Shown here piece by piece: positions 1 to 62,675 of a stretch of DNA of 64,000 nt. Source of the DNA: an uncultured Gammaproteobacteria bacterium. Its GTDB lineage: Bacteria; Pseudomonadota; Gammaproteobacteria; DRLM01. The first letter of the stretch is position 1. Every line of letters begins with the position of its first letter. The position numbers and the translations under genes are program-made. A model generated the notes under the pieces. That model made no database searches. It had not been told where the DNA came from and worked only from the letters and a program-made list of their open reading frames with translations. The stretch lies in assembly GCA_963761035.1 (NCBI GenBank), contig CAVXFH010000002.1:1215017-1279016 (forward strand). The letters run 5' to 3'.

Positions 1-1
1 T

Positions 2-334
2 AATAAAAACCAAGCGGTTCAACTTTTTCTTTCGCTTTTGGTTCCACACAATGACTTTTACAACGTCTTTATAAAACTCACCCGTTGCATTCTTGCCCGA
101 AACCTTAAACTCATAAACCGTATTGGTTTCTGTGTCCAATATGTCAATTTTCTGGTCGAGGTCTGGCGCGACCAGAGCCTCGATTTGGTAGCGATCTGGA
201 TCGAGGGTGTGTACGGCAGAGCGCCATGCTTTGGCTATGGCCTGTGCATTACGAGTGTTATCAGAGACATCGTTATTGTCTTGGAGCCTTTGTTTGAAGG
301 CTACCTGGGCTGCTTGGATGATTGGATCGCTCAT
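2..334 (-). CDS. Cassette-encoded hypothetical protein, partial (runs off the window edge); possible PD-(D/E)XK nuclease-like motif
   Basis: My own translation of the minus strand gives MSDPIIQAAQVAFKQRLQDNNDVSDNTRNAQAIAKAWRSAVHTLDPDRYQIEALVAPDLDQKIDILDTETNTVYEFKVSGKNATGEFYKDVVKVIVWNQKRKKK... with no stop before position 1, which is why it is absent from the ORF track. The ATG is at 334-332, 13 bp inside the cassette boundary. The D..(n)..EFK pattern is only a weak hint of a nuclease fold. Confidence 0.45.
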   Translation of the reverse strand, partial: MSDPIIQAAQVAFKQRLQDNNDVSDNTRNAQAIAKAWRSAVHTLDPDRYQIEALVAPDLDQKIDILDTETNTVYEFKVSGKNATGEFYKDVVKVIVWNQKRKKKLNRLVFI

Positions 335-340
335 AGAAAC

Positions 341-417
341 GGCTAACGATCACAATAAGACGCGCCGCGGAGCGGCGTCGCAGTGCGCAAAGCGCACGAC
401 TTGATTGAGTTGTTAGG
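341..417 (-). other. attC recombination site (cassette 4 | cassette 5 boundary)
   Basis: GGCTAAC at 341-347 and GTTAGGT at 411-417 flank an imperfect palindrome with an internal GTGCGCAAAGCGCAC hairpin. Length is 77 bp. Confidence 0.6.
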
Positions 418-437
418 TAAGTCATATGAGATGTTCC

Positions 438-809
438 TCACAACCTGCATATAAGACCTCCAAGGGTGGCGAAGCCCATCGAGACAAGCCCACTGAGCAA
501 TGCTGAAAAAGCAAAGCTTCGGGCCTCTGGCTTGTCTTTCCAATCTGGGTGGTTCCAATTTGTCGCCATCTTAAGGGCTAACCAACCAATCATAGCCGTA
601 CCAGCACCAGTCAGGTTTACACCTACAACAACAGTGAAAAAGCATCTTTCAACTAAACCTGTGACTTCCGGCGGAACGCGCTTTGAGTTGGTTTCACTAA
701 GCGCAGTCTTCTCATCTAGGTCTATGCGAGAACGCAACCAATCTTTGAAATATTGCGTACCGAAGTGCCCTACCAAGAGGGAAAATAATAAACCTAATAT
801 CCACCACAT
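438..809 (-). CDS. Cassette-encoded membrane protein (about 4 predicted TM helices), unknown function
   Basis: 123-aa ORF with hydrophobic segments. ATG at 809 lies 16 bp inside the cassette boundary (ACCTAAC at 819-825). Confidence 0.5.
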   Translation of the reverse strand: MWWILGLLFSLLVGHFGTQYFKDWLRSRIDLDEKTALSETNSKRVPPEVTGLVERCFFTVVVGVNLTGAGTAMIGWLALKMATNWNHPDWKDKPEARSFAFSALLSGLVSMGFATLGGLICRL

Positions 810-818
810 GACTGATCT

Positions 819-914
819 ACCTAACGTTCGACGTAACCGGCCGGCGGAGGCCGAAGGCCGGAGCGAACCTGCAAGCGCAGCTTGCAGGCGGTCCGATTGA
901 CGGAGGGGTTGGGC
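819..914 (-). other. attC recombination site (cassette 3 | cassette 4 boundary)
   Basis: ACCTAAC at 819-825 and GTTGGGC at 908-914. Perfect internal palindrome CCTGCAAGCGCAGCTTGCAGG. Length is 96 bp. Confidence 0.6.
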
Positions 915-933
915 GTTGAGTGGGCCGGGGGAG

Positions 934-1368
934 CTACTTCAGCAGCCATATTAGTGAGCGAGCCAGCAAGGCGCCAAAGGTGAGACCGCCGCTAACGGCG
1001 AACAGATGATGCCACCAACGCGAAGTACGCGCGACGGAAACTCTCGCTTTCATTCGAGCAGCGCGCACTATTTCCACCCTGGTTGTGAAATCTGCAGCGG
1101 TGCGAGTTGCATCTTTGTCGATGGGCGGTAGAAGTACAAGAGACAGCGCGACAAAGGCACCAACTATGACGAGTGCGGCGAGCGCCAAAGTCGGGATGTG
1201 CAAGAGCGGGGAAAGGGAACCCGTGATTGCGCCGGGCTCCATGAACACGGCGGACAGCAGGTATGCGACAACGGCACCAGCCATCGCCGTATCTAGCGGC
1301 GTTTGCGGTGAGCGAAAGAGCTGAACAGTACGCGACACGATCTTACGACGCCCAACGCTCACAATCAC
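934..1368 (-). CDS. Cassette-encoded membrane protein, unknown function. The true start is probably the internal ATG at 1284, because the cassette boundary lies at 1355/1356
   Basis: Hydrophobic ORF. The track start at 1368 is a GTG outside the inferred cassette boundary. Confidence 0.4.
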   Translation of the reverse strand: MIVSVGRRKIVSRTVQLFRSPQTPLDTAMAGAVVAYLLSAVFMEPGAITGSLSPLLHIPTLALAALVIVGAFVALSLVLLPPIDKDATRTAADFTTRVEIVRAARMKARVSVARTSRWWHHLFAVSGGLTFGALLARSLIWLLK

Positions 1369-1432
1369 CGGCTGGTTTGGAGCGGCAGAGCGAAGCGGCG
1401 CCGCGTAATACCAGTCCGGTGGATTGTGTTGT
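1350..1432 (-). other. attC recombination site (cassette 2 | cassette 3 boundary)
   Basis: GCCCAAC at 1350-1356 and GTTAGCC at 1426-1432. Inverted repeats ACAATCACCGGCTGG / CCAGTCCGGTGGATTGT carry single unpaired bases, which resemble the extrahelical bases of attC sites. Confidence 0.5.
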
Positions 1433-1443
1433 TAGCCGTGTTT

Positions 1444-2007
1444 TTAAAACCATGGTTGCGCTTCCAACGCCTTGCGTAGCGAAGTTTCAACAAATGTAGG
1501 CGTGCGCCAAACGTACTCCGCCGCCTTTGCCTTTCCTTCACTGTCGAGGGATTGAATGTGACAAAGCGCGGCCTCGACTGAGAATGGCTTTTTGCATTTA
1601 CTCTTCGTTTGAAAGTTACTTTCCAGATCTGTCCAAATAACAACATCGATCTTTTTCTCTGACGCCCAATCTTGGATCGATTTTAGTACTTCTTCATCCC
1701 GTGCTTGTTTTCGAGAATTGTCGGCGAAGCAGAAACCGACATTTTTCAGTGTGGTTCCTTCCCGGCTTCGAACATCACAGATGGCGTCATCTGGATTATT
1801 GCGTTTGCTAAATGCGTATGCGACTTGACACGGCACTCCATACTTGGAATCCAGAACAAGGGTCAAAGCGGCAAATCTTGTTTGGGACACACGGGAAAAC
1901 TCGATCTTTAAGCTCGGGCCGTCAAACTGCCAATCCTCATGCTGTTCATCAAATTCGGGGCGTTTGTCCCAGAGCAATGACCCCCACCCCAGAATTGCGA
2001 TCTTCAA
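1444..2007 (-). CDS. Cassette-encoded cytoplasmic protein, possibly gamma-glutamyl cyclotransferase/ChaC-like fold
   Basis: 187-aa ORF. N-terminal ILGWGSLLWD resembles the YGSL glycine-rich loop of GGCT/ChaC/AIG2-like proteins. TTG start is preceded by a strong AAGGAG RBS at 7-nt spacing. Fold assignment is tentative. Confidence 0.5.
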   Translation of the reverse strand: MKIAILGWGSLLWDKRPEFDEQHEDWQFDGPSLKIEFSRVSQTRFAALTLVLDSKYGVPCQVAYAFSKRNNPDDAICDVRSREGTTLKNVGFCFADNSRKQARDEEVLKSIQDWASEKKIDVVIWTDLESNFQTKSKCKKPFSVEAALCHIQSLDSEGKAKAAEYVWRTPTFVETSLRKALEAQPWF

Positions 2008-2023
2008 TGGTGACTCCTTATAC

Positions 2024-2083
2024 GGCTAACGATAAAGCTCAGCCGCCGCGCTGTTTGCGGTCGGCTGCAGCGTATGGTTAGGG
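2024..2083 (-). other. attC recombination site (cassette 1 | cassette 2 boundary)
   Basis: GGCTAAC at 2024-2030 and GTTAGGG at 2077-2083, with an imperfect internal palindrome (GCTCAGCCG...CGGCTGCAGC). The stop codon of the 2078..2335 ORF lies inside the right-hand core, as is typical for cassettes. Confidence 0.6.
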
Positions 2084-2335
2084 GCGTCTTCTCTTGCCCC
2101 AACGCCACCCCAGTGGCTCACCCTTGAGCCAAGCAATGGCCGTAACTCCGACACCAAGGGCTAGAAAGTAAACTGTAAAAGCTACTGAATCGTGTCCTGG
2201 CGGAAAGAGGAATATGCCTGCCAGTACTAGCAGCGCAAAGCAAATCATCACAACATAGCCTTGCCAGGTACGAGGCAGTCCCCAACCCCAACCATACCGC
2301 TTAGCTGGAAACCAGTACTTAGGATCCTGAGTCAT
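2078..2335 (-). CDS. First cassette: small 2-TM membrane protein (KYWFPAKRYGWGWG N-terminus), unknown function
   Basis: 85-aa ORF. GAGGTGG RBS. ATG at 2335 lies 30 bp inside the attI-proximal crossover point. Confidence 0.5.
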   Translation of the reverse strand: MTQDPKYWFPAKRYGWGWGLPRTWQGYVVMICFALLVLAGIFLFPPGHDSVAFTVYFLALGVGVTAIAWLKGEPLGWRWGKRRRP

Positions 2336-2359
2336 AAAATTTCCACCTCGAACGAGTGC

Positions 2360-2440
2360 ACCTAACAGTGATTAGACAGCATATGGCTGTGTTTAAACAC
2401 AGACCTTTGCGGTATAGCACTCATTGGTAACCTCCCCACT
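2360..2440 (-). other. attI-like primary recombination site region (core ACCTAAC at 2360-2366)
   Basis: The first GTTRRRY-type core (minus strand GTTAGGT) lies between the first cassette and the intI 5' end. The extent toward intI is approximate. Confidence 0.45.
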
Positions 2441-2443
2441 TCT

Positions 2444-3279
2444 TTGACTTTATTGAGTTATGGTTTATGCTTGTGTTGCATATACCGCATTTCCGCCACC
2501 GCAATGCCAAGGAGGGCAATGATGGCGAAATCACCCTTGCTTGAGCGCCTGCGTGAAGCAATTCGCGTTCGTCACTATAGTATCCGTACGGAACGGAGCT
2601 ACGTCCAGTGGGTTAAACGATTCATCCTGTTTCACGACAAACGGCACCCGGCCGAGATGGGCGCTGTAGAAATCTCAGCCTACCTTACGCACTTGGCCGT
2701 GGCGCGAAAAGTCTCCGCTTCTACCCAAAATCAAGCCCTTAATGCGCTCAACTTCTTCTACCGCAATGTCCTTGAGCGGGATATGGGAAACTTGGAGGGC
2801 GTGGTTATGGCAAAACGTCCTCAGCGCCTGCCGGTGGTTCTGACTCGGCAAGAGGTAGAGTCCGTATTGCGCTACCTAAAGGGCGACAACTGGCTAATGG
2901 CTGCCTTGATGTATGGATCGGGCCTACGGCTCATGGAATGTCTGCGGCTGCGCGTGAAAGATGTGGATTTCGGTTATCAGCAGATTTTGATTCGCGACGG
3001 TAAAGGGCAAAAGGATCGGGTCGTGCCCTTCCCCAAGCGTTTGGCAGAGGCGCTGCGGGGACATTTACAACAGGTGCGGCAGGCTTACAAAAACGCGTGA
3101 ATTGCCACGCGCTGCGCCACAGCTTTGCGACGCATTTGTTGGAGTCAGGTTACGATATTCGCACTGTGCGGGAGCTGCTTGGCCATGCCGATGTGTCGAC
3201 GACCATGATCTACACTCATGTCTTGAACCGCGGCGGGCGCGGGGTGTTCAGCCCGCTTGATCAGCGGCCGGCCGGGTGA
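2444..3279 (+). pseudogene. intI: Integron integrase intI, inactivated by an internal ~225-bp deletion plus frameshift (fragments 2444..3100 and 3097..3279)
   Basis: Fragment 1 (RHYSIRTERSYVQWVKRFILFH...LPVVLTRQEVESVL...GSGLRLMECLRLRVKDVDF...[10 protein letters not shown]...QAYKNA*) aligns from memory to IntI1/VchIntIA residues about 10-200. Fragment 2 ([41 protein letters not shown]...GVFSPLD) aligns to the C-terminal box II/tyrosine region. About 75 aa between them are missing, and the fragments are in different frames. The missing part includes the IntI-specific extra domain. Confidence 0.8.
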
Positions 3280-3459: not shown

Positions 3460-5526
3460 ATGTCCAACCTGCTCGCCCAGGAGACCAGTCCCTATTTGTT
3501 GCAGCACGCCGAGAATCCGGTGGCGTGGCATCCCTGGAACGCGGCGGCCCTGGCGGCGGCGCGGCGCGACGACAAGCCGATCCTGCTCTCCATCGGTTAT
3601 TCCGCCTGCCATTGGTGCCATGTCATGGCCCACGAGTCCTTCGAGGATCCGGCTACGGCGGCGGTGATGAACGAGCTGTTCGTCAATATCAAGGTCGATC
3701 GGGAAGAACGCCCCGATCTCGACAAGATCTATCAGCTCGCCCATCAGATTCTCACCGGGCGCGGCGGCGGCTGGCCCTTGACGGTGTTTCTCACGCCCCA
3801 GGATCTGGTGCCCTATTTCGCCGGGACCTATTTTCCCAAGACCGCCCGCTACGGCATGGCGCCGTTCACCGAGGTGTTGCGCCAGGTCGCCGGCTTCTAT
3901 CGCGAGCGGCCCGGCGACATCGCCGAGCAGCACGGCCGCCTGCTGGAGGTCTTGCAGCGTCTCAGCGCCGCGGCGCGCAACGACGCGCCCTTCGATGCCG
4001 CGCCCCTGGATATCGCGCGCAATCAACTGGCCACCAGCTACGACGCCGATCACGGCGGCTTCGGCGCCGCCCCCAAGTTTCCCCATCCCACCCACATCGA
4101 ACGCCTGCTGCACCATTGGGCCTCGACCGCCGCCGCGGGCCATCCCGATCACGGCGCGCTGGACATGGCGCGCACCACCTTGATCAAGATGGCCGACGGC
4201 GGCATCTACGATCAATTGGGCGGCGGGTTCTGCCGCTACGCGGTGGACGCGCAGTGGATGATCCCGCACTTCGAAAAGATGCTCTACGACAACGGCCCGC
4301 TGCTCGCCCTCTATGCCCAGGCGTGGCAGATCGGCGGCGACGCCTTGTTCGAGCGCATCGTCCGGGAAACCGCGGAGTGGGCGATGCGCGACATGCAGTC
4401 GCCGCGGGGCGGCTACTATGCGTCGCTGGATGCGGATTCGGAACATGAGGAAGGCAAGTTCTACGCCTGGACGCCGGAAGAAGTGCGGGCAGTGCTGGAC
4501 GAGGCCGACTATCCCCTGTTCGCCCACCGCTTCGGCCTGGACCGCGAGCCCAATTTCGAGGACAAGTGGCATCTACATGTGTTCCAGGGTTTGCGCGCCC
4601 TGTCCCAGGAATTCTCCCTGCCCATCGACGCCATCATCACCCGCATCGATGCGTCGCGCCGCCGACTGTTCAAGGCGCGGCAGCAACGCGTGCATCCCGG
4701 CCGCGACGAAAAGATTCTCACCGGTTGGAACGGGCTGATGATCAAGGGCATGGCCGTCGCCGGCCGCGTATTGCATGAGCCCGCCTATCTCGCCGCGGCG
4801 GAACGCGCCCTGGATTTCATTCGCTCCACCTTGTGGCAGGACGGCCGTTTGCTGGCCGTCTATAAGGACGGACGCGCGCGCTTCAACGCCTATCTCGACG
4901 ATTACGTGTTCGTCATCGACGCCATCCTCGCGCTGTTGCAGGCGCGCTGGCGCGACGGCGATCTCGATTTCGCCGTCGCCCTGGCCGACGCGGTGCTCGC
5001 GCATTTCGAAGATAAAGACCAGGGCGGCTTCTACTTCACCGCCGACGATCATGAGCCATTGATCCATCGCCCCAAGCCGCTGACCGACGAGGCCACGCCC
5101 TCCGGCAACGGCGTGGCGGCGACGGTGCTGGGGCGCCTGGGCCACATAATGGGCGAGACGCGCTACCTCGATGCGGCGGAGCGCGGTCTGCGCGCGGCGT
5201 GGAGCGCGGTCGCGGAATTGCCCTATGCCCATGATTCGCTGTTGGCCGCCCTGGAGGATCAGCTCTATCCGCCGCAACTGATCGTGGTGCGCGGCGAAGG
5301 GGCCGCGCTTAAAGACTGGCAAGCGCGTATCGACCGCCACTATGCGCCGCGGCGCATCAGCCTCGCCATTCCCAATCACGTTATGCGACTTGCCGGCACC
5401 CTGGGCCACTGCGCGCCGCGCGGCGCGATCTGCGCCTATGTGTGCAGCGGCACCAGTTGTTCGGCGCCGATCACCGAACTCGGCGAACTGGAAACCCGGC
5501 TGGCGGAAACCGAGGCGCGGGCATGA
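3460..5526 (+). CDS. Thioredoxin-domain protein (YyaL/DUF255 family; thioredoxin-like N-terminus plus six-hairpin glycosidase-like domain)
   Basis: 688 aa. N-terminal ...PVAWHPW...[21 protein letters not shown]... motif is typical of COG1331/YyaL. Confidence 0.8.
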
Positions 5527-6848
5527 CGCCTTCTCCTGTTCGCAAATTATCGCCGCGTTCAAGTGCGATGTTGGCGGCGATCACTTTGTTGATGATGATC
5601 GCCTTCCACTCCGCCGGCGCCGCCCCATCGCCAAACCCCTGGCTGCAAACCTCCCCGTTGCTCGCGCCGCGTTCCGGCGCCGGCGTTCTTGAAGTCAACG
5701 GCGTCATCTACGCCATCGCCGGTATCGACGGCAAGCAGTTTCTGCGCAGCAGCGAATACAGCGCCATTCATGACGACGGTACCCTCGCCGCGTGGCGGGC
5801 CGGCAGCGAACTCAATGAAGCGCGCGGCTTCTTCGGCGTGGCGGCTCATGGGGGTTTCCTCTACGCGGTGGGCGGCGGCAACGGTCCCAGCGGTCACCAT
5901 CTGTTGCGCAGCGTGGAACGCGCCGCCGTTCGCGCCGACGGCAGTCTCGGTCCGTGGCGGGAAACGCAACAGCTCAATCTGCCGCGGCGCTGCGCCAAGG
6001 TCGTGGCCTCGGGCGACTATCTTTACGCCATCGGCGGTTTCGGCGGCGCCTTGCTGGATTCCGTGGAACGGGCGCGTTTCAACGGCGACGGCAGTCTCGG
6101 CCCGTGGGAGATGCTCCCGGACAAACTCACCCGGCCCCGCTACATCCACGCCGAGGCGGAAGTGAACGGCCGTCTCTATATTGTGGGCGGGCATGCCGAG
6201 CAGGGCGGCATGGGCGAGGCCGCCGTGGAATTCACCGCGCTGAGCAAGGAGAAGGATCTGTCGTCATGGCACGGCACCGCCGCCCTGATACAGGGACGTT
6301 ACGGTCTGGCCGCGGCCAGCCACGGCGATTACCTCTACGCCCTGGGCGGCATGAGCGGCGCGACCTTCTACGATGTCATCGAAAAAAATCACGTCGACGC
6401 CGACGGCGCGCTGGGCGTATGGCACGACACGACACCGCTCCCCGCGCCGCTGGCGGACCTGGGCGTCGTCGTCTATGGCGATTGGATGTATGTCATAGGC
6501 GGCACCAGCCCCAAGGGGTATTTCAATAGCGTGTACTACGCCCGCATCGACAAGCGCGGCGATCCGGCGCCGGCCGCGGCGGGCAACGCGCCGCGCCGGC
6601 CGCGCCGGTCAACCGCGTGGAACTGCCCAACGGCGGCACGGTCATGCAGTCGCTGGAAGGCGGGACCTATATCTATCTGGAAGTGGATACCGGCGCAGGC
6701 AAGGAGTGGCTGGCCGCCGCCCATGCCGACATCGCGGCGGGCGATCACATCCGCTACAGCGACGGTATCTGGATGCGGGATTTTTTCAGCAAGTACCTGC
6801 AGCGGCGCTTCGCCGCCATCCGTTTCGTGGGTAATCTGGAAAAGGTGA
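5523..6848 (+). CDS. Secreted Kelch-repeat beta-propeller protein. Its 3' part is probably frameshifted (see 6617..6859)
   Basis: Signal peptide, then six repeats of hydrophobic-Y-A-hGG-x-G ([48 protein letters not shown]). The last ~85 aa in this frame are W/S/P-rich nonsense, while the -1 frame looks protein-like. The ATGA overlaps the stop of the upstream gene. Confidence 0.65.
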
Positions 6849-49448: not shown

Positions 49449-49745
49449 GCGACCTCATAGATTACGATTACACGGCAGGGACAAGTCAGAGATGACTTGA
49501 TCGACAAGAAAGTCAATAAGGATTGGGATCGGATACAGGCACCATCTACATACTTGCTGGCACTCATAGTTGGTGCACATCCTATATATTGCATTATTCG
49601 CGGCACCAGCCTGCTAAGGGTTACAGCAGAGACCCGCGAAAGCCGCATGACATTGCTGCGGGATCGCAACTGCGCTTCCGGTGAATTTCCCGACGCTATT
49701 TCTTATTTATCCGGTGAGTGATGGCTGCTGCAACAAGAGACGCCA

Positions 49746-52700
49746 TCAATGCATGAAGTCCATATTTAGCAGCCGGTTGATGGAATCCGGCCTGTCGATC
49801 ATATAACCCTGAACATAATCGACGCCTATCTCGCGCAACAGCTCGAGAACCGCGGCGTTTTCAACGAACTCCGCAACTACTTTCTTTTTCATAAAATGCG
49901 CTATCTCCGTGATCGATTTAACCACGGCATAGTCACTGGAGCCGGCGACCATATTCTTCACGAATGCGCCGTCAATTTTTACCGAATCAACGGGGAGGTT
50001 TTTTAGATAGCCGTAGCTTGACATGCCGCTGCCGAAATCATCCAATGCGAAACGACACCCTTCTTCCTTAATCCTTTCGATAAATAAGATGGCATCGGAA
50101 AGACTAGCGATACCGACCGTCTCTGTCACCTCGAAGCAAATCTTATCACGAGGCACGCTCACGGCTTTCAGTTTCTCCAATAAATAATCCAAGAAACCCT
50201 CTTCATTAATGGACTGGCCAGACAAGTTGATAGAGAAACCGTCTATCTTATCCATGACTTCGGGATTGCTTTCGATCCACGATAAGGTTCCTATAATCAC
50301 GTATCGATCCACCGCTGACATCCGGCGATACCATTCCGCGGCCTTGATGAATTCGCTCGGCGAACCGATTTCGCCATGCTCGTCCCTGACACCCATCAAT
50401 ATCTCGAAATGAGGCCGTTCCTCGCTGTCGCTTGCCAGCGGTTGAATGCGCTGGCACCTGATCTCCAGCGCGCCTTCTTCCAACATCGTATCAATCTTGC
50501 CGATCCACTTCATGACCTCCGCCTGGTGCGCGACGCGCGAGTGGCCGGCATGAAAGACCTGCAATCTGTTTCCGCCATTATCCTTGGCGATGCTGCAACT
50601 CGACTCGGCGGCCAGCAACAACTCATCGACATCGCCGCTACGGGAGCTAATTGGCACCAATCCCATGCTCAATGTGGCCGAATAGACATCACCCTTCCAT
50701 TCCATTTTGTACCCGGCGACGCTCTCGATTTTCTGTTCTGCGACAGCAAGGGCGTCGTCCAATGAGCACTCCTTAAGGAGTATCCCGAACTGATCGCCGC
50801 CAAGACGCGCGATTTCCGCATTGCCGGGCAAGTTGTCGTGAAGGATTTTCACCGAGTTTTGCAATAACTGATCACCGCCCGCATAGCCACAACTGTTATT
50901 GATGGCGCTGAATTTATCTATATCGATGAACAACAGGACATGCCTTGCGTCATCTCGCTTGGCGCTCGCCACGGCTTCTCGCATCAGTCTGTCAAATTCA
51001 CGACGATTGATCAGCCCCGTCACGCTGTCATGAGTGCTTTCGTGTAAGACCTGCTGATAGAGATCCTGCATAATAACGTATTGGGCTCTATCCATGGCGG
51101 GATCGGCGACATTGTCCTGGGGCTTCATGATTCTAAGATGCATCATAACCGCCACGTCGGCGGCCTTTAATACTGTTTCCTTTATTCCCTTCAAATTCAC
51201 GAATACATAGATCGATTTTTGATCATCCACCCAACCGACGCGTAACCTTTGAGGGCTACCCCCTGGAAAGGTTTGAAGCATGCTATCGCCTACACGCAAT
51301 CTACGCACATGCATCAACCATTTATGCTTTTCGGCTGTGGAGATACTGGTATCACTCACTACGTTATCTTCAAATATTTCCGGCTCCGGAGGAGACGCTT
51401 CGCATTCCTTGACTAAATCTCTTACGTTGTCCTCATATGCCTTGTTTTGAACCTTGATAAGCTTAGTCAGTTTATTGAGTATTTCCTCAAAGATTTTCGC
51501 GCCATCGGTGCTTTCCTTGGCAACCTTTTCCAATAGTTCCTCGATGGCTGCGCTAATGGCGCTTTGCTTCGAATTGGCCTTACCCTGATGATAGAATTCA
51601 AGTTGAGCGATATTGTTGACTACCTGGCGAGCCACATGGGAGTGATCAAAGAACAAGGTGGGGTCCAATAACGCCATCTTGATAACGGGTAGCTCGAGTT
51701 GCCTGAGCCACGGCTTGACGCTTTCAGCCACTAAGGGATCGGTCTGCATGGCACCTAGTAGGTCGCCGGTGACCTCCAGTACGTTACTGTCGCGGGGATT
51801 AAGTTGCTTCACGTTGCCTTCCCCGGTTCGTGACAGCAAGACCGCGGCAATGCGCGACTTAAGGTTATGAGGCTGATCTTCGCTATACTGAAAGCTTTGA
51901 GGAGTTGTCTGCAAGTCGGCAATAGCAGCGACTAAATCGGAAGTTGCATAACACTTACTGATATCTGTGATTTCCGGCGTAATCTCGGTTAGTTCCGTCA
52001 TGCCGGGTGATAATTCGCGCTGTCCCGGCAACAAATCCGCCCTCTGCCTAGCTAGCCCGTGCCGCAATGCGCGCAAGTCCTGCACGACTTGGAACAGATT
52101 CTGGGGCGCTGCCTGTCCGCCGGTAGAAGCTGCTGCCGTAGGAGAAATGAAAGAGGGCGCGGGCATTTCGCTCTGCGGGTTCACAGCAACTCCGGACTTC
52201 ACAGCTACGGTTGGCGGCTCGGTACTTTGCTTCGATAATGCCGACCGGTGAAGCATTCTGTATTTGAGGTCGGGTAATACGCTATATTCGATCAGGATGC
52301 CGTTGAGTTTTGCATAAAGATCCGACGACAAGTTGATTAGAATATCCTTGAACACAGCATAACAAGCAGTATTGACAGCTTCTTTGAACTTGAAGTAACT
52401 CAGTCCGGCTTGAAATGACTCTGCGAAAAGAGCCGGCCCATAGGGATTATTGGCGTGACTGATCTGCGCATTGAATAATACCGACAACCGCTCTTCGAGC
52501 ATGGCCAGCGTCTCTTTGTATTTTTCCTCAACCTTGCCGGTAACATCTGAAATTGCCAACCACGTCCCTAAATCCTCATCACCGATAAGCGACAAGTTTT
52601 CAAAAGACAGATTCGCGATACGCTGCCCCTCTGCTTCTTTAGTACCGTACGTCTTTTCATGGGCCGCCTGTAATCGCTCTTTAAAACTCGAGTGCACTAT

Positions 52701-53354
52701 ATCGAGAAACTTATTCTGATTTGCTTTGATATCTCCAGCTGCAATAAAATAGACATTCTGTTCCTCGATACCGACAGAATTACTGGAAAGATCAAATAAG
52801 CGTTGATAGAGCCGGTCACCTAGTTGCTCCAATAAGGAGTCCATTGTCGCTAGAACGAGACGACCACAATCGGCTAATATGCCACTGCATTGCAGATCGA
52901 TCGAGTTTCCGCGATTACTGCCTATCTCCAGTTCATGGGGCCGTGGATTTCCCGAGGAAAATTGCAGCGCAAACTGCTGCATGGTCCGCAGTGCATCGCG
53001 TTCCGGGTTGACAAAAGCAAGACCAACGCCGTTTTGCATGGCGCGGACGATGCGCGCTTGAAACTGTAGAAGCTTATCGCCGTCCGGCATGGGGACGATA
53101 GTTTGTACCACAAACCTGTTTTTTACTTCGAAGAAGTGCAATTGCTCTTGCGCCGCTTGCGGGGAATAATGCAGCAGCATCCCCCCCATGCAAAAATCCT
53201 TCATCTCGCATTGAATTTTGCGCCCATCGGGAGCAATGAGTGTCGCACCCAACACCACAGGATAACGCACGAAGGCGCGCCGACCTTTTTCTGAAGGATC
53301 AACTTTTGGCGGGTTGGATTCCGCAATCTGCTTATTTAGCTTTGGTGCTTGCAT
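49746..53354 (-). CDS. PilZ - DUF1631 - GGDEF (degenerate GGDQF) - EAL multidomain c-di-GMP signalling protein, 1202 aa, in a low-GC island
   Basis: N-terminal RRAFVRYPV...DFCMGGMLL (PilZ-like). Long DUF1631-like middle. GGDEF domain with RLGGDQFGILL. C-terminal EAL domain (EILMGVRDEHGEI..., DDFGSGMSSYGYLKNLPVDSVKIDGAFV). GC is markedly lower than in neighbouring genes. Confidence 0.75.
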   Translation of the reverse strand: MQAPKLNKQIAESNPPKVDPSEKGRRAFVRYPVVLGATLIAPDGRKIQCEMKDFCMGGMLLHYSPQAAQEQLHFFEVKNRFVVQTIVPMPDGDKLLQFQARIVRAMQNGVGLAFVNPERDALRTMQQFALQFSSGNPRPHELEIGSNRGNSIDLQCSGILADCGRLVLATMDSLLEQLGDRLYQRLFDLSSNSVGIEEQNVYFIAAGDIKANQNKFLDIVHSSFKERLQAAHEKTYGTKEAEGQRIANLSFENLSLIGDEDLGTWLAISDVTGKVEEKYKETLAMLEERLSVLFNAQISHANNPYGPALFAESFQAGLSYFKFKEAVNTACYAVFKDILINLSSDLYAKLNGILIEYSVLPDLKYRMLHRSALSKQSTEPPTVAVKSGVAVNPQSEMPAPSFISPTAAASTGGQAAPQNLFQVVQDLRALRHGLARQRADLLPGQRELSPGMTELTEITPEITDISKCYATSDLVAAIADLQTTPQSFQYSEDQPHNLKSRIAAVLLSRTGEGNVKQLNPRDSNVLEVTGDLLGAMQTDPLVAESVKPWLRQLELPVIKMALLDPTLFFDHSHVARQVVNNIAQLEFYHQGKANSKQSAISAAIEELLEKVAKESTDGAKIFEEILNKLTKLIKVQNKAYEDNVRDLVKECEASPPEPEIFEDNVVSDTSISTAEKHKWLMHVRRLRVGDSMLQTFPGGSPQRLRVGWVDDQKSIYVFVNLKGIKETVLKAADVAVMMHLRIMKPQDNVADPAMDRAQYVIMQDLYQQVLHESTHDSVTGLINRREFDRLMREAVASAKRDDARHVLLFIDIDKFSAINNSCGYAGGDQLLQNSVKILHDNLPGNAEIARLGGDQFGILLKECSLDDALAVAEQKIESVAGYKMEWKGDVYSATLSMGLVPISSRSGDVDELLLAAESSCSIAKDNGGNRLQVFHAGHSRVAHQAEVMKWIGKIDTMLEEGALEIRCQRIQPLASDSEERPHFEILMGVRDEHGEIGSPSEFIKAAEWYRRMSAVDRYVIIGTLSWIESNPEVMDKIDGFSINLSGQSINEEGFLDYLLEKLKAVSVPRDKICFEVTETVGIASLSDAILFIERIKEEGCRFALDDFGSGMSSYGYLKNLPVDSVKIDGAFVKNMVAGSSDYAVVKSITEIAHFMKKKVVAEFVENAAVLELLREIGVDYVQGYMIDRPDSINRLLNMDFMH

Positions 53355-53973
53355 TACAATATTGCTTTTTCACGAGCAGGCGAATTTGTCTGCAAGATCA
53401 CGCCGCGTTATTGACATAATTAAACCGCCTTCTTGCAGCTCCGCCTCATTCACTTAGGAATATTACAGTTAACTTATCGACCCTCATCATCACTCCTTTA
53501 ACGCTTGATATATGAATTTTAACTCCAGACCCGGAATCGACGACGAGGCCACGATGGTCGGCCAAAAGAAATTAATCGGTTGGTTATTTTTTACCTATGC
53601 GGATCGACTACTTATCCACAAAAACGTATTATATGCGCTGTAGATCTGCGTCTACACGATAGTGCTGATTAGATTGGGCTGCGGACCGGCGCTTCCGCCA
53701 CAGCGGCCCACAGAGCGAAACGTTCGCTTAAATTGCGGCGTGGGGGTTCATCGAGCCCATGGGGCAATGGTTATGCCTGGTATCCAAAAAATCGATCAAC
53801 GCCGCAGTCCAAAATAGGTCCGGTCCCGGGCGGATGCCGAATAGGGCATAAGCACTGTCCCAGCATGGTCAATAATACTGATCGATTAATTGTCATAATG
53901 ACGCCGTTGTCAGCCTATTTGCCCGAAATTCGTCGGAACACGCAGGGTTGCCTGCGCTATCCCCGCGGGGCCT

Positions 53974-55860
53974 TCATTCTTCGAGATAGGTATAGCCCGC
54001 CAAGCCTTCTTCCAATTCCACCAAATAGGCCTTGCGTAAGTCATGGCTCAGATCCGCCTCGTTAAGCTTGCGACGATAAGCGGCGAGCAGATCTTCGGCG
54101 TTGAAGTGCACATAGCGCAGCAACTCGTCCACGGTGTCGCCGCGTTGCGGCTGCACTAATTTATAAGTATCGCCGGCGCCGAGCTCGACATTCACCGCAT
54201 CGGTATCGCCGAACAGATTATGCATATCGCCGAGGATTTCCTGATAAGCTCCGATCAAGAACACACCGATCAAATACGGATCGTCCTTGCGCACGCTGTG
54301 CAGGGGTAGACTGGACTCCACGCCTTCGCGGTCTACGTAGTGATCGATACGACCGTCGGAATCACAGGTGAGGTCCTGGATAACGGCGCGCCGATCGGGC
54401 CGCTCGTCTAAACGATGCAAGGGCATGATGGGAAATACCTGATCAATGGCCCATACGTCGGGCAGGGATTGAAACAAGGAAAAATTGCAGAAATATTTGT
54501 CCGCCAGTTTCTCGTTCAACTCATCGAGCATCTCGCGATGGGCGCGCGTCTCCGGCTTCAACAGACTACGCACCTCGGCGCAGATGGCAAAAAACAATTG
54601 TTCGGCGCGGGCGCGCTGCGCCAGACTCAAAACGCCATGGGTATACATGGACTGGGCCTCGCCCACCCAATGTTCGGCGTCGTGATAGCCTTCCAGCACC
54701 GAACGCGAACTCAAATTTTGCAATGTTTGCCACAGGTCGTGAATAATCAGCGGCTCATCGTCGCCGGGCGACGGGAGCATTTTACCGACGTGCGCCTGCT
54801 CGATGCCGATGACGTTGGTGATCAATACCGCGTGGTGGGCGGTCATGGCCCGGCCCGATTCGGTAATTACATCGGGATGGGGAAGGCCTTGCTGCTTGCA
54901 AATTTCCCACAGGGTATGGATGACGTTATTGGCATATTCCTGCACGCTGTAATTCATGGAGCAATAACTGCGCGAGCGCGTTCCCTCGTAATCGACGCCT
55001 AGCCCGCCGCCGACATCGACGCAGCGGATGTTCACGCCCAGTCTGTGCAATTCGGCATAATAGCGCGCTGCCTCGCGCATCCCGCTTTGGATGTCTCGTA
55101 CATTGGCCACCTGTGATCCCAAGTGAAAGTGCATCAATTGCAGAGACTCCAGCATCCCCGCCTGACGCAGTTCGTCCACGGCGGCAAGGACTTGCATCGC
55201 GGATAGACCGAACTTGGACTTATCGCCGCCGGTGTTCTGCCACTTTCCGTGTCCGATGGAAGCTAAGCGCACGCGGATGCCCAACAGTGGCGCGACCTTC
55301 ATCTTGCGTGCCTCTTCGATCACCGTGGCCAATTCGGAAAGTTTCTCCACTACGATGTACACCCGGTGACCGATGCTTCTTCCTATGAGAGCAAGGCGAA
55401 TGTATTCGCGGTCCTTATAACCGTTGCACACCACCACCCCGTCGGGTTTGGACAAGGCCAATACCGCCATCAACTCCGGCTTGCTGCCCGCCTCCAACCC
55501 CACCCGCGCATCGCCGTGGCGTAGAATTTCCTGCACCACGCTCTTCTGCTGATTGACCTTGATGGGGTATACCGCGGTGTAGCGGCCTTGATAATCCACC
55601 ACGCTCATGGCCTGCGCAAAGGCACCGCACATGACATCCACGCGGTCGTGAAGAATATCGGAAAAGCGCACCAACAAGGGTAATGCCAAACCGGCAGCCT
55701 GGGCCTCCCGGCTCAACCTATAGAGGTCGACGCCGGGGTGATCGCCACCGGGGCGCGGACGTACCTGAAGGTTGCCTTCGCCGTTGATGTCGAAGTACTT
55801 CCCGCCCCAATGGGCTATGTTATAGGTGTCCCGCGCCTGTTGGATATCCCATTCATGCAT
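53974..55860 (-). CDS. speA: Biosynthetic arginine decarboxylase
   Basis: MHEWDIQQARDTYNIAHWGGKYFDINGEGNLQVRP is canonical SpeA. Confidence 0.85.
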   Translation of the reverse strand: MHEWDIQQARDTYNIAHWGGKYFDINGEGNLQVRPRPGGDHPGVDLYRLSREAQAAGLALPLLVRFSDILHDRVDVMCGAFAQAMSVVDYQGRYTAVYPIKVNQQKSVVQEILRHGDARVGLEAGSKPELMAVLALSKPDGVVVCNGYKDREYIRLALIGRSIGHRVYIVVEKLSELATVIEEARKMKVAPLLGIRVRLASIGHGKWQNTGGDKSKFGLSAMQVLAAVDELRQAGMLESLQLMHFHLGSQVANVRDIQSGMREAARYYAELHRLGVNIRCVDVGGGLGVDYEGTRSRSYCSMNYSVQEYANNVIHTLWEICKQQGLPHPDVITESGRAMTAHHAVLITNVIGIEQAHVGKMLPSPGDDEPLIIHDLWQTLQNLSSRSVLEGYHDAEHWVGEAQSMYTHGVLSLAQRARAEQLFFAICAEVRSLLKPETRAHREMLDELNEKLADKYFCNFSLFQSLPDVWAIDQVFPIMPLHRLDERPDRRAVIQDLTCDSDGRIDHYVDREGVESSLPLHSVRKDDPYLIGVFLIGAYQEILGDMHNLFGDTDAVNVELGAGDTYKLVQPQRGDTVDELLRYVHFNAEDLLAAYRRKLNEADLSHDLRKAYLVELEEGLAGYTYLEE

Positions 55861-56907: not shown

Positions 56908-58134
56908 CTATCGCTCCGGAAGCGCGCCGTCTTCCTCCAAGGCGGCGTCTGCCGCCGGCGCCGATACAGCTTGATAATCGATACTGATACGGTCCGTCGC
57001 ACAAGGTCGGAACCATTCGTCGGCAAAGGCCACATGCTCGGGGTGGACGCGGTAGCTGTCGATCACCTGAGAATGGGCGAAACGCACCAGCCAGCAGTAA
57101 CGGTACCTATCGCCTTCCCGCACGGCGCGGCCGCAGAAGACGCGCCGCACACCCGGCACTTGCGCCAGGACCCGGCGACCTTGGGCCATCATGGCCTCGG
57201 CCTGTCGTTCCGTTTTGCCCTCGACATTGTATATGATCAAGTGTTCCACTTCGTTCCAGGCCGCCGCCGCGGCCAGCACTGCATCCGCGCGCTTTGCGGC
57301 GCCCCACACGCGCAGACAGCGCTCCACTTCGCGGCCGATGGTTTCACTGACCCCTTGAAGCAAGGCCATATAACCTCCGTTGGGATCTTCGAGGGAATTG
57401 CTCCGAATGCGCCGCGACGCAATGAATGAAAGCGAACTGTAATAATTTATCCTGGCAACACCTCGATCGACAAGACATTTTGACTCCGCATCGCTGAGAC
57501 CGCTGCCGCCGTGAATCACCAGCGGCACATCCACCACCCGACTAATACGTGCCAAGCGCTCCAGATTGAGCTGAGGCCGTTCAGCAGACAAGCCATGACC
57601 CGTACCGATGGAAACCGCTAAGAAATCCACCTTGGTTTGCCGCACATATTGCTGCGCCTCGTCGGGCCAGGTATACACGCCCGGCACGCCGTCCGTTTCT
57701 GCTTCTCTGGCATAACCGGATACGATGCCGATCTCACCCTCGACAGGGATTCCGCACGCGTGAGCGACTTCGACGATGGCGCGCGTCCGCTTTACGTTTT
57801 CCTCAAACGATAAATGGGAGCCGTCGAACTTCACGCCGTTGCAGCCCAGGCGTATGCCTCGCACAACACCGTCCGGATCGGTGGCGTGATCCAAGTGTAT
57901 GGCCACCGGCACCGGGCTGCGCTTCGCCCCCACCACAGCCGCCGCCATCAACATTTCGACATCGTAGTATTTGAACTGCGGTACAACGAAATTTAAAATC
58001 ACCGGGGCACAGCACGTTTCCGCACCCTTCATCACCCCCTGCAATAGCTCCAGGGAGACAATATCGAAGGCGCCCACCGCATAATGATTGCCGCGCGCAT
58101 GCACCAGCATATCCCGCATGTTGACTAGCGGCAC
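56908..58134 (-). CDS. Class II fructose/tagatose-bisphosphate aldolase family protein fused to a C-terminal Dabb (stress-responsive alpha/beta barrel) domain
   Basis: N-terminal MPLVNMRDMLVHARGNHYAVGAFDIVSLE..., IHLDHATD zinc site and HGGSG. C-terminal ~100 aa ...VEHLIIYNVEGKTERQAEAMMAQGRRVLAQVPGVRRVFCGRAVREGDRYRYCWLVRFAHSQVIDSYRVHPEHVAF (Dabb-like). Confidence 0.65.
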   Translation of the reverse strand: MPLVNMRDMLVHARGNHYAVGAFDIVSLELLQGVMKGAETCCAPVILNFVVPQFKYYDVEMLMAAAVVGAKRSPVPVAIHLDHATDPDGVVRGIRLGCNGVKFDGSHLSFEENVKRTRAIVEVAHACGIPVEGEIGIVSGYAREAETDGVPGVYTWPDEAQQYVRQTKVDFLAVSIGTGHGLSAERPQLNLERLARISRVVDVPLVIHGGSGLSDAESKCLVDRGVARINYYSSLSFIASRRIRSNSLEDPNGGYMALLQGVSETIGREVERCLRVWGAAKRADAVLAAAAAWNEVEHLIIYNVEGKTERQAEAMMAQGRRVLAQVPGVRRVFCGRAVREGDRYRYCWLVRFAHSQVIDSYRVHPEHVAFADEWFRPCATDRISIDYQAVSAPAADAALEEDGALPER

Positions 58135-58184
58135 GCCTCTCTCCCGAAAGAGCGGATTGCATTATCAATTCGACATAGCATGGG

Positions 58185-58547
58185 TCATCCATTCTTCCCA
58201 TTAAGAAGTTCGTTTAACGCCGCGTTCAACGCATCTAATGCCGAACCCATGACCAAACCGGCACAGCGATGGTACAACTCAAGGGTACAGGATATGGGCT
58301 CATGCAGGTTGTCGCGATGCCGCACAGCGAATTCCACCCACGCCATCACCGGCTGATCCTCGGCGTTGGCATCAACGCAGAGCCAGAGATTATCGTCCAA
58401 CAGGATCTCCAAGCCGCGATGCTCCGGCACGGCGACCCGCAGAGGAGCGCCCAAGCGCCGCAGGGCCAGACGCGCACGATTGTAGACAGACGCCTCGATG
58501 GTCTTGGGCATCTTGCGCAGTACCATCGATGTGGGCCGCTCGCGCAT
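58185..58547 (-). CDS. Hypothetical protein within the cbb operon
   Basis: 120-aa ORF between cbbX and the aldolase gene, same strand. No motif recognised. Start is uncertain. Confidence 0.4.
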   Translation of the reverse strand: MRERPTSMVLRKMPKTIEASVYNRARLALRRLGAPLRVAVPEHRGLEILLDDNLWLCVDANAEDQPVMAWVEFAVRHRDNLHEPISCTLELYHRCAGLVMGSALDALNAALNELLNGKNG

Positions 58548-58588
58548 AGAGGTCTATTCGAATAGCTATGTAATACCGAAATCGCGGT

Positions 58589-59530
58589 TTAATCCTCGGC
58601 ATCCACCTCGTCACTGTCACTTCTGCCTTCGGTAAACACCCGACTGACCAAGACATCGTCGGATTCGATGGTAATCAGATCGGACTTACTGAGCTTTCTC
58701 TTAGGGTCGGCGAACAGACGATTGGCCTGGCGCAGGCGCGCGCGGTCCAGCGCGTTGCGCACCGAACGGGCATTGGAGAAATGCGGAAGTTTCATGCGCA
58801 GCTTCAGATAGTCGGCGAAGGCCTTCTCACCCTCCGCGCTGAAACGATAGTTCTGCTGCGCCAGCATCAGCCTGGCGATGTGCAGTAACTCCTCCCCCGT
58901 GTAGTCTGGGAAATCGATGTGATGGGCGATACGCGAGCGCATGCCCGGATTGCTCTGAAAGAATCGTTCCATCTTGTCCTTGTAACCGGCCAGGATCACG
59001 ACGAGATCGTCGCGATTGTTTTCCATGATCTGCAGCAGGATTTCGATGGACTCCTGACCGTAATCGCGTTCGTTCTCCGGTTTGTAAAGATAATAGGCCT
59101 CGTCGATGAACAGCACGCCGCCCATGGCCTTCTTGATGACCTCCTTGGTCTTGGGCGCGGTATGGCCGATATACTGGCCGACCAGGTCGTCACGGGTAAC
59201 CGTAATAAGGTGGCCTTCGCGCACGTAACCCAGACGCTTCAATATCTCGCCCATACGCATCGCCACCGTGGTCTTGCCGGTGCCGGGGTTGCCGGTGAAA
59301 CACATGTGCAGGGTGGGCGTTTCGGAACTGAGCTCGAATTTCCTGCGGAGGCGATCGACCAACAGCAAGGCGGCCACCTCGCGGATGCGAGTCTTGACGG
59401 GCTTCAATCCAATCAATTCCCGGTCGAGTTTGTCCAACACCTCTTGGATGTTAGAGGCCTTGAATTCGGCCTCAAGATCCACCCGCGCGTCGTCCGTCAT
59501 GGCGATCTCTGAATTCTTGGCATTACTCAT
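58589..59530 (-). CDS. cbbX: CbbX, AAA+ red-type RuBisCO activase
   Basis: Walker [14 protein letters not shown], Walker [11 protein letters not shown], and the CbbX-type C-terminus. Confidence 0.85.
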
Positions 59531-59615
59531 ACCACAAGTATCCTGTTACAACTGGGTAAGGAAAGTGGCGGACAACGTGTCCGCCACCGGTCTTTACATC
59601 TCATCTTACCTACTA

Positions 59616-60053
59616 CTACTTATACCGCTCACCCTCCGGCTTGTCCGTGGCATAGCTATGCACGGTGTAGCGGATGTTGCGGCCGTCCGCCTCCTGTCGC
59701 GACAGACCGAAGCCCGGCTCGTGCTTGGGACGGTTGACGATATACGACATGGTCGGCGATTCCACGCCGCGGGTACTGTTGAAGGCCGTCACCCGAATGT
59801 AGTGATTGGGAAAGGTTTTGCGGCAGTTGTTGATCTCCATGAGGATCCCGGCGGGATCCTTGAGATCAAACATGGGCATGCCGAACATCTCCCAATAGGT
59901 GTTGCGCGGGTGCGGATCGTCGGTGTATTCGACGTTGACCGCCCAGTTGTTTTTCAGCGCGTATTTGATCTGCGCCGTGATCTGTGCATCGGTCAAGTCA
60001 GGGAGAAACGAGAACTGGCCCTGAGTGATTCGATTGCCGTGATTAGTCATCAT
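59616..60053 (-). CDS. cbbS: RuBisCO small subunit, red-type (form IC/ID, with C-terminal extension)
   Basis: [63 protein letters not shown]. Confidence 0.85.
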
Positions 60054-60075
60054 GATGGCGTCTCCTTAATCTGTC

Positions 60076-61575
<1,500 letters not shown>

Positions 61576-61760
61576 TTATACTGTCTATACCGTAGCCAAT
61601 CCTGCCCCCAAGGGTGCTACGCCGCAGGCGGTGTAGCCGGCAATGTCACTACGTTGACCTTATCCTGCCCGGCGATAGCCATCAATAACAGTCAATTTTT
61701 TCGATCATCATGATAGACTTTTGTCTATCTATATAATCCATTTGGACGAGCGCCTTATCT

Positions 61761-62675
61761 ATGCGACGCACCACTTTGCGTCAACTCGAAGTCTTTGAAG
61801 CCATCGCACGGCTCGGCAGTTTTACGCGCGCCGCGGAGGAATTGCATCTCACCCAACCTACGGTGTCCATGCAGATCAAGAAGCTCACCGATGCCGTGGG
61901 TATGCCTTTGTTCGAACAACTGGGGAAAAGAATCTATCTCACGGCGGCGGGACGCACGCTGCAAAATTTCTCGCGGGAAATATTTGAACACTTCGCCCGC
62001 TTCGAGATGCAAGTAGCCGACTTGAAAGGTTTGAAGAAGGGGGGATTGCGGCTCGGCGTGATCACCACCGCCAAGTATTTCATCCCGCGCCTCCTCGGCC
62101 CTTTCTGCCGGGAGTATCCGAGCATTGATGTCTCGATGAAGGTATCGAATCGCGAACGGATACTGGAGCGTCTGAGTAACAATGAAGACGATCTGTATAT
62201 TCTAGGACTGCCGCCGGAAGAGATCGATGTCATCGCGGTACCGTTTCTGTCCAATCCCTTGGTCGTGCTGGCGCCCGCCGATCACCACCTGGCGCAGGCG
62301 AAAGAAATTCCGCTGCGGCGCCTAGCGGAAGAACCGTTTCTATTGCGCGAATACGGTTCGGGAACGCGGATCGCGACGGAACAATTGTTCGCAAAATATA
62401 ACTTAAAAATAAAGATGCGTATGGAGTTGGGCAGCAATGAAGCCATCAAGCAAGCCGTGATCGGAGGGTTGGGCATCTCGGTATTATCCCGCCATACCCT
62501 GACCATGGACTTTCCGCTGGACCGGCTTGCCCTGTTGGATGTGGAAGGGTTTCCCATCGAACGTCACTGGTATGTGGCATACCCCAAGGGCAAACAGCTC
62601 TCGGTGGTGGCAAATACTTTTCTCGATTACCTCATGCAAGTACATCAGCACCTAAACGACGTGTTACCCTATTAA
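61761..62675 (+). CDS. cbbR: LysR-family transcriptional regulator CbbR
   Basis: Divergent from cbbL. N-terminal HTH MRRTTLRQLEVFEAIARLGSFTRAAEELHLTQPTVSMQIKKLT. Confidence 0.8.
   Translation: MRRTTLRQLEVFEAIARLGSFTRAAEELHLTQPTVSMQIKKLTDAVGMPLFEQLGKRIYLTAAGRTLQNFSREIFEHFARFEMQVADLKGLKKGGLRLGVITTAKYFIPRLLGPFCREYPSIDVSMKVSNRERILERLSNNEDDLYILGLPPEEIDVIAVPFLSNPLVVLAPADHHLAQAKEIPLRRLAEEPFLLREYGSGTRIATEQLFAKYNLKIKMRMELGSNEAIKQAVIGGLGISVLSRHTLTMDFPLDRLALLDVEGFPIERHWYVAYPKGKQLSVVANTFLDYLMQVHQHLNDVLPY

Follow-up and report, generated by a model that had tools for sequence, protein, structure and literature searches.

Why does base composition fall so visibly across a single long gene, and what would the protein encoded there do? 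Could the dip mark a foreign island, or does it belong to a gene that has been resident for a long time? These questions are raised by a 64,000-nucleotide (nt) stretch of contig CAVXFH010000002.1 from an uncultured gammaproteobacterium, here called the window, within which the composition and repeat scans at the locus were made. An earlier note on this DNA had read positions 49450-53960 as a horizontally acquired low-GC island that carries a rare combination of domains. We arrive at a different answer: with a probability of roughly 60%, the low-GC stretch is one intact, long-resident gene, predicted to encode a phosphodiesterase for cyclic di-GMP (c-di-GMP) that is gated by c-di-GMP itself through a PilZ domain and a DUF1631 module.

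The sole long open reading frame (ORF) of the region lies on the minus strand and encodes 1202 amino acids (aa). The gene and its domains are as follows.

49746..53354, minus strand, stop codon included: intact PilZ-DUF1631-GGDEF-EAL gene, 1202 aa (ORF list, translation, Pfam, NCBIfam)
52968..53282, minus strand: PilZ domain, residues 25-129, with RRAFVR (RRxxxR) and DFCMGG
51045..52892, minus strand: DUF1631 (PacR-like) module, approximately residues 155-770 (Pfam)
50565..51035, minus strand: degenerate GGDEF domain, residues 774-930, motif GGDQF (Pfam)
49788..50444, minus strand: EAL domain, residues 971-1189 (Pfam)

Domains were assigned by Pfam and NCBIfam scans of the 1202-aa translation. 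All four domains named in the earlier note, the degenerate GGDEF (GGDQF) included, were found by Pfam, and the two calls it had singled out for checking both exceed their cutoffs: PilZ at residues 25-129 with 36.9 bits against 22.5 (E 4.8e-9), and DUF1631 from residue 159 with 264.7 bits against the PF07793 gathering cutoff of 33.7 (E 2.5e-78). GGDEF at 774-930 and EAL at 971-1189 were matched with E values of 4.5e-30 and 1.5e-50, respectively, while composite GGDEF-EAL enzyme models of NCBIfam were matched below threshold only. From this anatomy, the product would be a cytoplasmic c-di-GMP signalling protein.

Where does the protein begin? The public gene call for the same sequence (P0001) begins only at Met56, is 1147 aa long and splits the PilZ domain in half. 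The conserved N-terminus of homologues (P0002 and others) supports the longer, 1202-aa start. Two further gene calls, P0013 and P0004, are shortened like P0001 and start at a Met inside PilZ; the missing PilZ N-terminus was recovered by translating upstream of the P0013 call in locus L001. In the window, the stretch concerned is 53196-53354. Because these calls start inside PilZ, the precomputed domain lists of P0001, P0013 and P0004 contain no PilZ, and surveys of domain architecture that rely on such shortened gene calls will undercount it.

Which activity can be expected of the GGDEF-EAL half? Its best solved relative is RbdA (PA0861) of P. aeruginosa, a PAS-GGDEF-EAL protein (5xgb), to which the tandem can be aligned over its full length (E 2.7e-108, query residues 771-1191); the EAL-only entry 8pps was matched with E 7e-64. 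The metal-binding and catalytic set of the EAL domain is kept (E984, N1043, E1075/E1078, D1105-D1106, K1126, E1162 and Q1182) and recurs in practically all of the about 50 sequences in which the region is preserved. Loop 6 reads DDFGSGMSS, which fits the DFG(T/A)GYSS pattern and is near the DDFCAGMSS of RbdA; the catalytic residues and a DDF(G/C)xGMSS loop 6 are common to both proteins. RbdA is membrane-anchored and has an N-terminal PAS domain, an intact GGDEF motif, an RxxD site (REGD) and the Arg of ExLxR (ELLLR), whereas in the window protein PilZ and DUF1631 replace PAS, the motif is GGDQF, an inhibitory site (I-site) is lacking and Gly stands for the ExLxR Arg. Phosphodiesterase activity of RbdA, enhanced by GTP, is described in a passage of PMC7825114 that cites Liu et al. 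2017. By analogy, the 1202-aa protein would work like a composite RbdA-type GGDEF-EAL phosphodiesterase with an unusual input module, its EAL domain hydrolysing c-di-GMP.

Might it also synthesize c-di-GMP? Overall, conservation of the GGDEF domain is good (E 4.5e-30), and the guanine-binding residues N819 and D828 as well as the metal-binding Asp residues are kept, as would suit a bifunctional enzyme with synthesis and degradation of c-di-GMP in one protein. The signature motif of the domain, however, reads RLGGDQF and has lost the catalytic Glu. In the 53 members of the family in which this region is preserved, the motif drifts (GSDEF, SGDEF, GGDQF, GADEF, GPDQF and others) and is canonical in few. 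Five residues upstream, at the place of the RxxD I-site, the window protein has PGNA, and no RxxD is conserved in the family; KxxGRN is replaced by KDNGGNR, which turns the phosphate-binding Arg into Gly. Both the GG[D/E]EF motif and the RxxD inhibitory site of active diguanylate cyclases are thus missing. Judged from these residues, cyclase activity appears very unlikely and GTP binding is uncertain; a bifunctional enzyme seems to us extremely improbable. The GGDEF domain would make no c-di-GMP; its role would be that of a partner to EAL, either structural or allosteric.

The EAL domain itself could be read differently. The ExLxR Arg, which contacts the substrate in EAL structures, is replaced by Gly in the window protein (EILMG) and in most members, Arg being found in three loci only. 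Together with the degenerate GGDEF domain, this loss would agree with a non-catalytic receptor whose EAL domain only binds c-di-GMP, as in FimX and LapD, in other words a two-site sensor with DUF1631 as its output. FimX and LapD do occur among the solved or curated relatives, FimX matching the GGDEF-EAL half with E 3.4e-43, and stand-alone DUF1631, represented by PacR, has regulatory phenotypes of its own (PMC9543026). Yet E984, N1043, E1075, D1105, D1106, K1126, E1162, Q1182 and loop 6 are invariant, and the similarity to active RbdA is far stronger than that to FimX (E 2.7e-108 versus 3.4e-43). FimX and LapD have lost several EAL catalytic residues, and the EAL domain of FimX is catalytically dead. 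We therefore regard a purely non-catalytic receptor as unlikely. The likeness to the FimX/PilZ/PilB system of Xanthomonas is that a GGDEF-EAL protein and a PilZ domain act together; there, PilZ is a separate protein without c-di-GMP motifs (bioRxiv 10.1101/814665), whereas the PilZ domain of the window protein is fused, RRxxxR is kept and the EAL catalytic set is intact.

Can the N-terminal domain sense c-di-GMP? It shows the PilZ fold, a six-stranded beta-barrel followed by a C-terminal helix. The RxxxR motif of the N-terminal loop is present as R25-R26-A-F-V-R30, with R26 and R30 kept in at least 90% of family members; conservation extends to C55 and G58. The second motif, canonically [D/N]hSxxG (bioRxiv 10.1101/814665), is D53-F-C55-M-G-G58 in the window protein, i.e. 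[D/N]hCxxG. Cys occupies the canonical Ser position in 49 of 49 sequences, in which D/N, the hydrophobic residue and Gly are kept, and a second Cys is often found six residues upstream of the invariant one. Because Cys replaces the Ser of [D/N]hSxxG, c-di-GMP binding by this PilZ domain is a prediction only. The known PilZ receptors YcgR, MotI/DgrA, Alg44, PA0012 and the PilZ domain of BcsA have Ser at this position, unlike the invariant Cys of the present family, and in them PilZ belongs to a motor, synthase or secretion component, whereas here it is fused N-terminally to a c-di-GMP degrader. Both the departure of the family from [D/N]hSxxG and the loss of the ExLxR Arg weigh against an active phosphodiesterase gated by c-di-GMP.

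PilZ and the catalytic half are joined by the DUF1631 module, which is laid out as a helical part (151-356), a disordered and variable linker (366-465), a second helical part (471-653) and a small SH3/Tudor-like beta domain (approximately 686-745). A highly conserved helix, PAMDRAQYxIMQxLYxQV (752-774), runs from the module into GGDEF. PilZ and DUF1631 hold the position of the sensory domains (PAS, GAF, REC) in other GGDEF-EAL enzymes, and a conserved helix of the kind that joins them to the catalytic half usually transmits signals. We propose that the N-terminal PilZ domain would bind c-di-GMP and that its signal would pass through the DUF1631 module and the conserved helix before GGDEF to alter phosphodiesterase activity. 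With EAL gated by PilZ, the enzyme's own substrate would set its activity, which would make it either a homeostat or a switch: activation would cap c-di-GMP, inhibition would produce switch-like behaviour. This reading of the domains supports the proposal of the earlier note that receptor and degrader of c-di-GMP are combined in one self-contained protein.

How does the protein relate to PacR? PacR (XC_3388) of Xanthomonas campestris shares the DUF1631 module but consists of it alone, whereas here the module stands between PilZ and GGDEF-EAL; canonical DUF1631 proteins likewise have about 760-780 aa and that module alone. The NCBIfam model for PacR (NF058594) scored 66 bits, far short of its curated cutoff of 1200, and by its sequence the 1202-aa protein is best described as a carrier of the DUF1631 module, not a PacR orthologue. 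In the PacR mutant, GGDEF genes, biofilm and motility are deregulated (PMC9543026), and these c-di-GMP-related phenotypes fit DUF1631 as a module of the c-di-GMP pathway. Functional work on DUF1631 is scarce in the literature searched.

Is this combination of domains rare, as the earlier note had it? A word-indexed search returned about 25 full-length clusters with 48-72% identity. An alignment-based scan with a degenerate pattern, covering GTDB species genomes with one genome per species, gave 51 loci, all from uncultured Gammaproteobacteria; their lineage labels include Chromatiaceae, Thioalkalispiraceae, Ectothiorhodospiraceae, Woeseiaceae and Granulosicoccaceae. On contigs that are long enough, almost all loci span query residues from about 20 to 1196 and hence all four domains. 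Residues 1-770 were also used in an exhaustive HMMER search of 1.84 billion cluster representatives (50% identity), which yielded 2859 matches at E <= 1e-3 and 184 at E <= 1e-30. Among the best 150 representatives, 130 have a length of 1120-1369 aa; PilZ, DUF1631, GGDEF and EAL were all present in six of seven sampled across this ranking, the seventh being short at its N-terminus. A further variant joins an unknown N-terminus to DUF1631-GGDEF-EAL. The claim of rarity therefore does not stand: the four-domain family is uncharacterised and well populated. Its domains diverge in parallel (identities of 30-64% for PilZ, 30-77% for DUF1631, 42-84% for GGDEF and 52-82% for EAL), which implies an old fusion that evolves as a single unit. 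That PilZ can be fused to GGDEF and EAL has been noted since the original description of PilZ (bioRxiv 10.1101/814665); in the literature searched, neither the PilZ-DUF1631-GGDEF-EAL architecture nor 'PilZ-GGDEF-EAL' is described. The hosts found so far are mostly autotrophic or sulfur-associated uncultured Gammaproteobacteria. Three pairs of loci (L031/L032, L022/L049 and L026/L054) each come from a single metagenome-assembled genome but from different contigs; these genomes appear to hold two copies, so the four-domain gene has been duplicated within lineages.

How real is the dip in composition? The GC content of the gene is 0.499, with 0.561, 0.365 and 0.571 at the first, second and third codon positions (GC1, GC2, GC3). 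Its immediate neighbours have 0.54-0.61 GC and a GC3 of 0.56-0.76, and the rest of the window has 0.59 GC. Against the 26 other long genes of the window (mean GC3 0.738, standard deviation 0.065), the gene lies at z = -2.56. Its codon-usage distance B of 0.363 is the maximum among genes of more than 300 codons, while a gene of similar length has 0.13. The dip exceeds gene-to-gene scatter, and the windowed GC and codon-usage check proposed earlier accordingly finds an atypical gene and no uniform adaptation. The protein is rich in K, N, S, Q and E and poor in A, G and R, which means that the dip draws on all three codon positions. The contrast had been put at about 50% GC in the gene against about 65% in flanking genes; the first figure is right, whereas 65% is true only of distant genes, e.g. 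3460-6194, the flanks having 0.54-0.61. Likewise, the description as a single giant gene with AT-rich flanks holds, but the limits given do not: the low-GC zone extends from about 48750 to about 54250, its edges are gradual, and on the left it spans a truncated peptidase ORF.

Does the dip betray a recent arrival? A foreign low-GC gene inserted between core genes, as the earlier note proposed, would account for the atypical GC, GC3 and codon usage and for the AT-rich flanks, and in base composition and codon usage the gene does resemble a classical genomic island. Synteny tells against this. A shared gene order, speE - speA - (outer-membrane protein (OMP) beta-barrel) - cupin - gene - variable block - SPOR - argS - priA, was seen in six related metagenome genomes (the contig of P0004, L001/L002, L003, L004/L008, L007 and L055), the variable block being either DUF488 or a cluster of proteasome-like, ATP-grasp and Alpha-E genes. 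Flank proteins in these loci are 74-93% identical to those of the window (speA, argS and priA 74-91%; the SPOR-domain protein 68-72%). The gene itself is about 51-72% identical, less than its flanks. A RuBisCO operon lies beyond speE in several of these contigs. In the clade of the window, then, the gene would have stayed between speA and the SPOR-argS-priA block, and every syntenic orthologue has a GC deficit relative to its own flanks, of -0.05 to -0.10, as in the following examples.

L001: gene GC 0.540, flank GC 0.610
L003: gene GC 0.514, flank GC 0.587
L004: gene GC 0.554, flank GC 0.602
L007: gene GC 0.526, flank GC 0.616
L055: gene GC 0.488, flank GC 0.585

Signs of mobility are likewise missing. 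The boundaries of the gene, where a check for direct repeats had been suggested, have none of 14 nt or more; there is no tRNA in the window, no integrase or transposase at the locus, where no defence-system model was matched either, and the neighbours of the gene are housekeeping genes or an Anbu-type cluster. The gene thus differs from a classical genomic island in its presence at the equivalent locus of relatives, its gradual boundaries and its lack of integrase, tRNA and direct repeats: every genomic-island test failed except composition. With the equivalent position in six genomes and the shared deficit added, we consider recent acquisition very improbable. The only integrase-like ORF of the window, at 2444-3100, encodes a truncated tyrosine recombinase (Phage_int_SAM_4 and the first half of Phage_integrase) and belongs to another low-GC stretch, 1-3100 (0.51-0.52 GC), with three ORFs without Pfam match; mobile or foreign DNA is more plausibly sought in that stretch than around the 1202-aa gene.

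If the gene is resident, is its composition a relic of an older transfer? At four-fold sites of conserved residues, the window gene and those of L004 and L001 are 0.34-0.37 identical, where 0.28 is expected, and are thus near saturation. GC at four-fold sites (GC4) is nevertheless 0.61-0.75 in the gene, as against 0.78-0.93 in speA and speE of the same genomes. Under amelioration, a relic of foreign composition is expected to fade at such divergence. Low GC4 in spite of near-saturated sites therefore indicates that the deficit is maintained and is no relic; it looks like a gene-specific equilibrium. Across 52 loci, gene GC follows host GC over a range of 0.37-0.72 with a mean difference of -0.037, negative in 46 of the 52. 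The gene would evolve faster than its housekeeping neighbours, its lower GC and atypical codons being its own equilibrium; the likeliest cause would be that codon selection is weak on a regulator of low expression while mutation is biased towards AT.

Several observations run counter to such undisturbed residence, and they bear on a second scenario, in which the gene came by ancient transfer from a lower-GC donor into the ancestor of the clade or was repeatedly replaced by homologous recombination between alleles. A marked deficit is limited to the closest subfamily of the window gene (L001-L012). Members in the GC-rich hosts L019, L028, L035 and L052 have host-like GC, so the deficit is a property of this subfamily and could date from an old transfer. 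The gene is also far more diverged than its flanks, in protein and at synonymous sites; its synonymous divergence exceeds that of speA, which allelic replacement by recombination would fit too. Congruence between gene and flank identity is only moderate and suggestive (Spearman 0.50, p = 0.056, 15 pairs), and in L005 and L006 close homologues have unrelated genomic surroundings. Against transfer or replacement, the deficit persists in all syntenic orthologues despite near-saturated synonymous sites, and the rank order of identities broadly tracks that of the flanks. We give this scenario perhaps one chance in a handful, and hold to a long-resident gene with a composition of its own. Taken together, the shared synteny, the deficit of the orthologues and the missing mobility signature speak against the horizontal acquisition proposed earlier.

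What, then, are the AT-rich flanks? The following features surround the gene.

53355..53973: AT-rich gap of 619 bp between speA and the gene; OMP beta-barrel and cupin genes stand here in relatives
53607-53852, minus strand: possible decayed OMP remnant (tblastn, weak)
53470..53501, minus strand: conserved element TTAAAG-N14-GTCGATAAGTTA, ending 116 nt upstream of the ATG
49449-49745: gap of 297 bp, which together with the Peptidase_Mx ORF forms the left AT-rich flank
48822..49448, minus strand: truncated Peptidase_Mx ORF, 208 aa (Pfam; GC 0.536, GC3 0.56)
47954-48697, plus strand: proteasome-like subunit of the Anbu-type cluster
46390-47874, minus strand: circularly permuted ATP-grasp of the Anbu-type cluster
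45443-46393, minus strand: Alpha-E of the Anbu-type cluster

In L003, L004 and L055, speA and the gene are separated by OMP and cupin genes, which are missing in the window and in L007. The upstream gap of the window retains a weak tblastn trace of the former (residues 16-99 of the L004 OMP, 30% identity over 87 residues, E 0.004), and a remnant of the cupin gene was not found there. On the other side, the match of the Peptidase_Mx ORF to its 353-aa homologue P0277 is limited to residues 122-308 of the latter. Full-length relatives have about 355-362 aa and also a zinc ribbon (PF10005); a 98%-identical copy of 208 aa occurs in a JGI metagenome (P0276), and the ORF is absent at the equivalent position in L004, L007 and L055. 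It is probably a decaying insertion, and the AT-rich flanks as a whole appear to be decaying remnants of neighbouring genes. The Anbu-type cluster (45443-48697), which adjoins the gene, is kept in L004, L007 and L055 and missing in L001 and the contig of P0004.

Does the upstream gap hold regulatory signals? The element TTAAAG-N14-GTCGATAAGTTA is kept in the window, L003, L001, L004 and L007, whose upstream regions are otherwise divergent, and is a candidate promoter or regulator/operator site; it may also be parsed as TTAAAG-N17-GATAAG, with the two as -35 and -10 hexamers. A generic promoter scan missed it, and promoter and terminator scans were at chance level. No c-di-GMP riboswitch or other Rfam RNA was matched at E <= 1 in 48500-54500. 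The isolated DnaA-box-like TTATCCACA reported from this flank is present, although it starts at 53612 and not 53611 (53612-53620, plus strand), inside the putative OMP remnant. It is a single box and is not conserved: orthologous upstream regions lack it. The 9-mer occurs three times in the window, where 0.3 copies are expected, and this excess is due to a conserved palindromic pair upstream of priA; the copy at 53612 is most likely there by chance.

The pair in question, a perfect palindrome TTATCCACA-N5-TGTGGATAA at 40643-40665, lies about 130 nt upstream of priA (40794..43004, plus strand) and adjoins a very AT-rich stretch (40400-40600). Pair and spacing are conserved upstream of priA in L004/L008 and L055. 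One possibility is a promoter under DnaA control between priA and the same-strand gene upstream (39894-40319, UPF0093/CopD-like). Elsewhere in the window, a Calvin-cycle block at 56908-62675 comprises a class II fructose-bisphosphate aldolase fused to a Dabb domain, CbbX, the small and large subunits of RuBisCO and a divergent LysR regulator, from which the host is taken to be an autotroph.

What follows for the biology of the family? The locus offers a clean case in which a dip in GC and codon usage alone does not prove gene transfer, the dip being inherited by a resident gene with decaying flanks. From the fusion of PilZ to a phosphodiesterase one would expect c-di-GMP to feed back, as substrate, on its own turnover, and the literature searched holds no experimental study of such feedback in a fusion of this kind. 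One could go further and see in the family a self-regulating phosphodiesterase in which DUF1631 links PacR-type proteins to c-di-GMP and the invariant Cys makes sensing redox-dependent. We hold this extended version to be doubtful and give it little chance; if true, redox-dependent c-di-GMP sensing would suit bacteria at sulfide/oxygen interfaces. The position of DUF1631 between a c-di-GMP receptor and a c-di-GMP degrader in at least 51 species is a 'Rosetta stone' fusion for this module. It favours the suggested role of PacR-type proteins in c-di-GMP signalling, and provides a tractable protein in which the role of DUF1631 may be defined.

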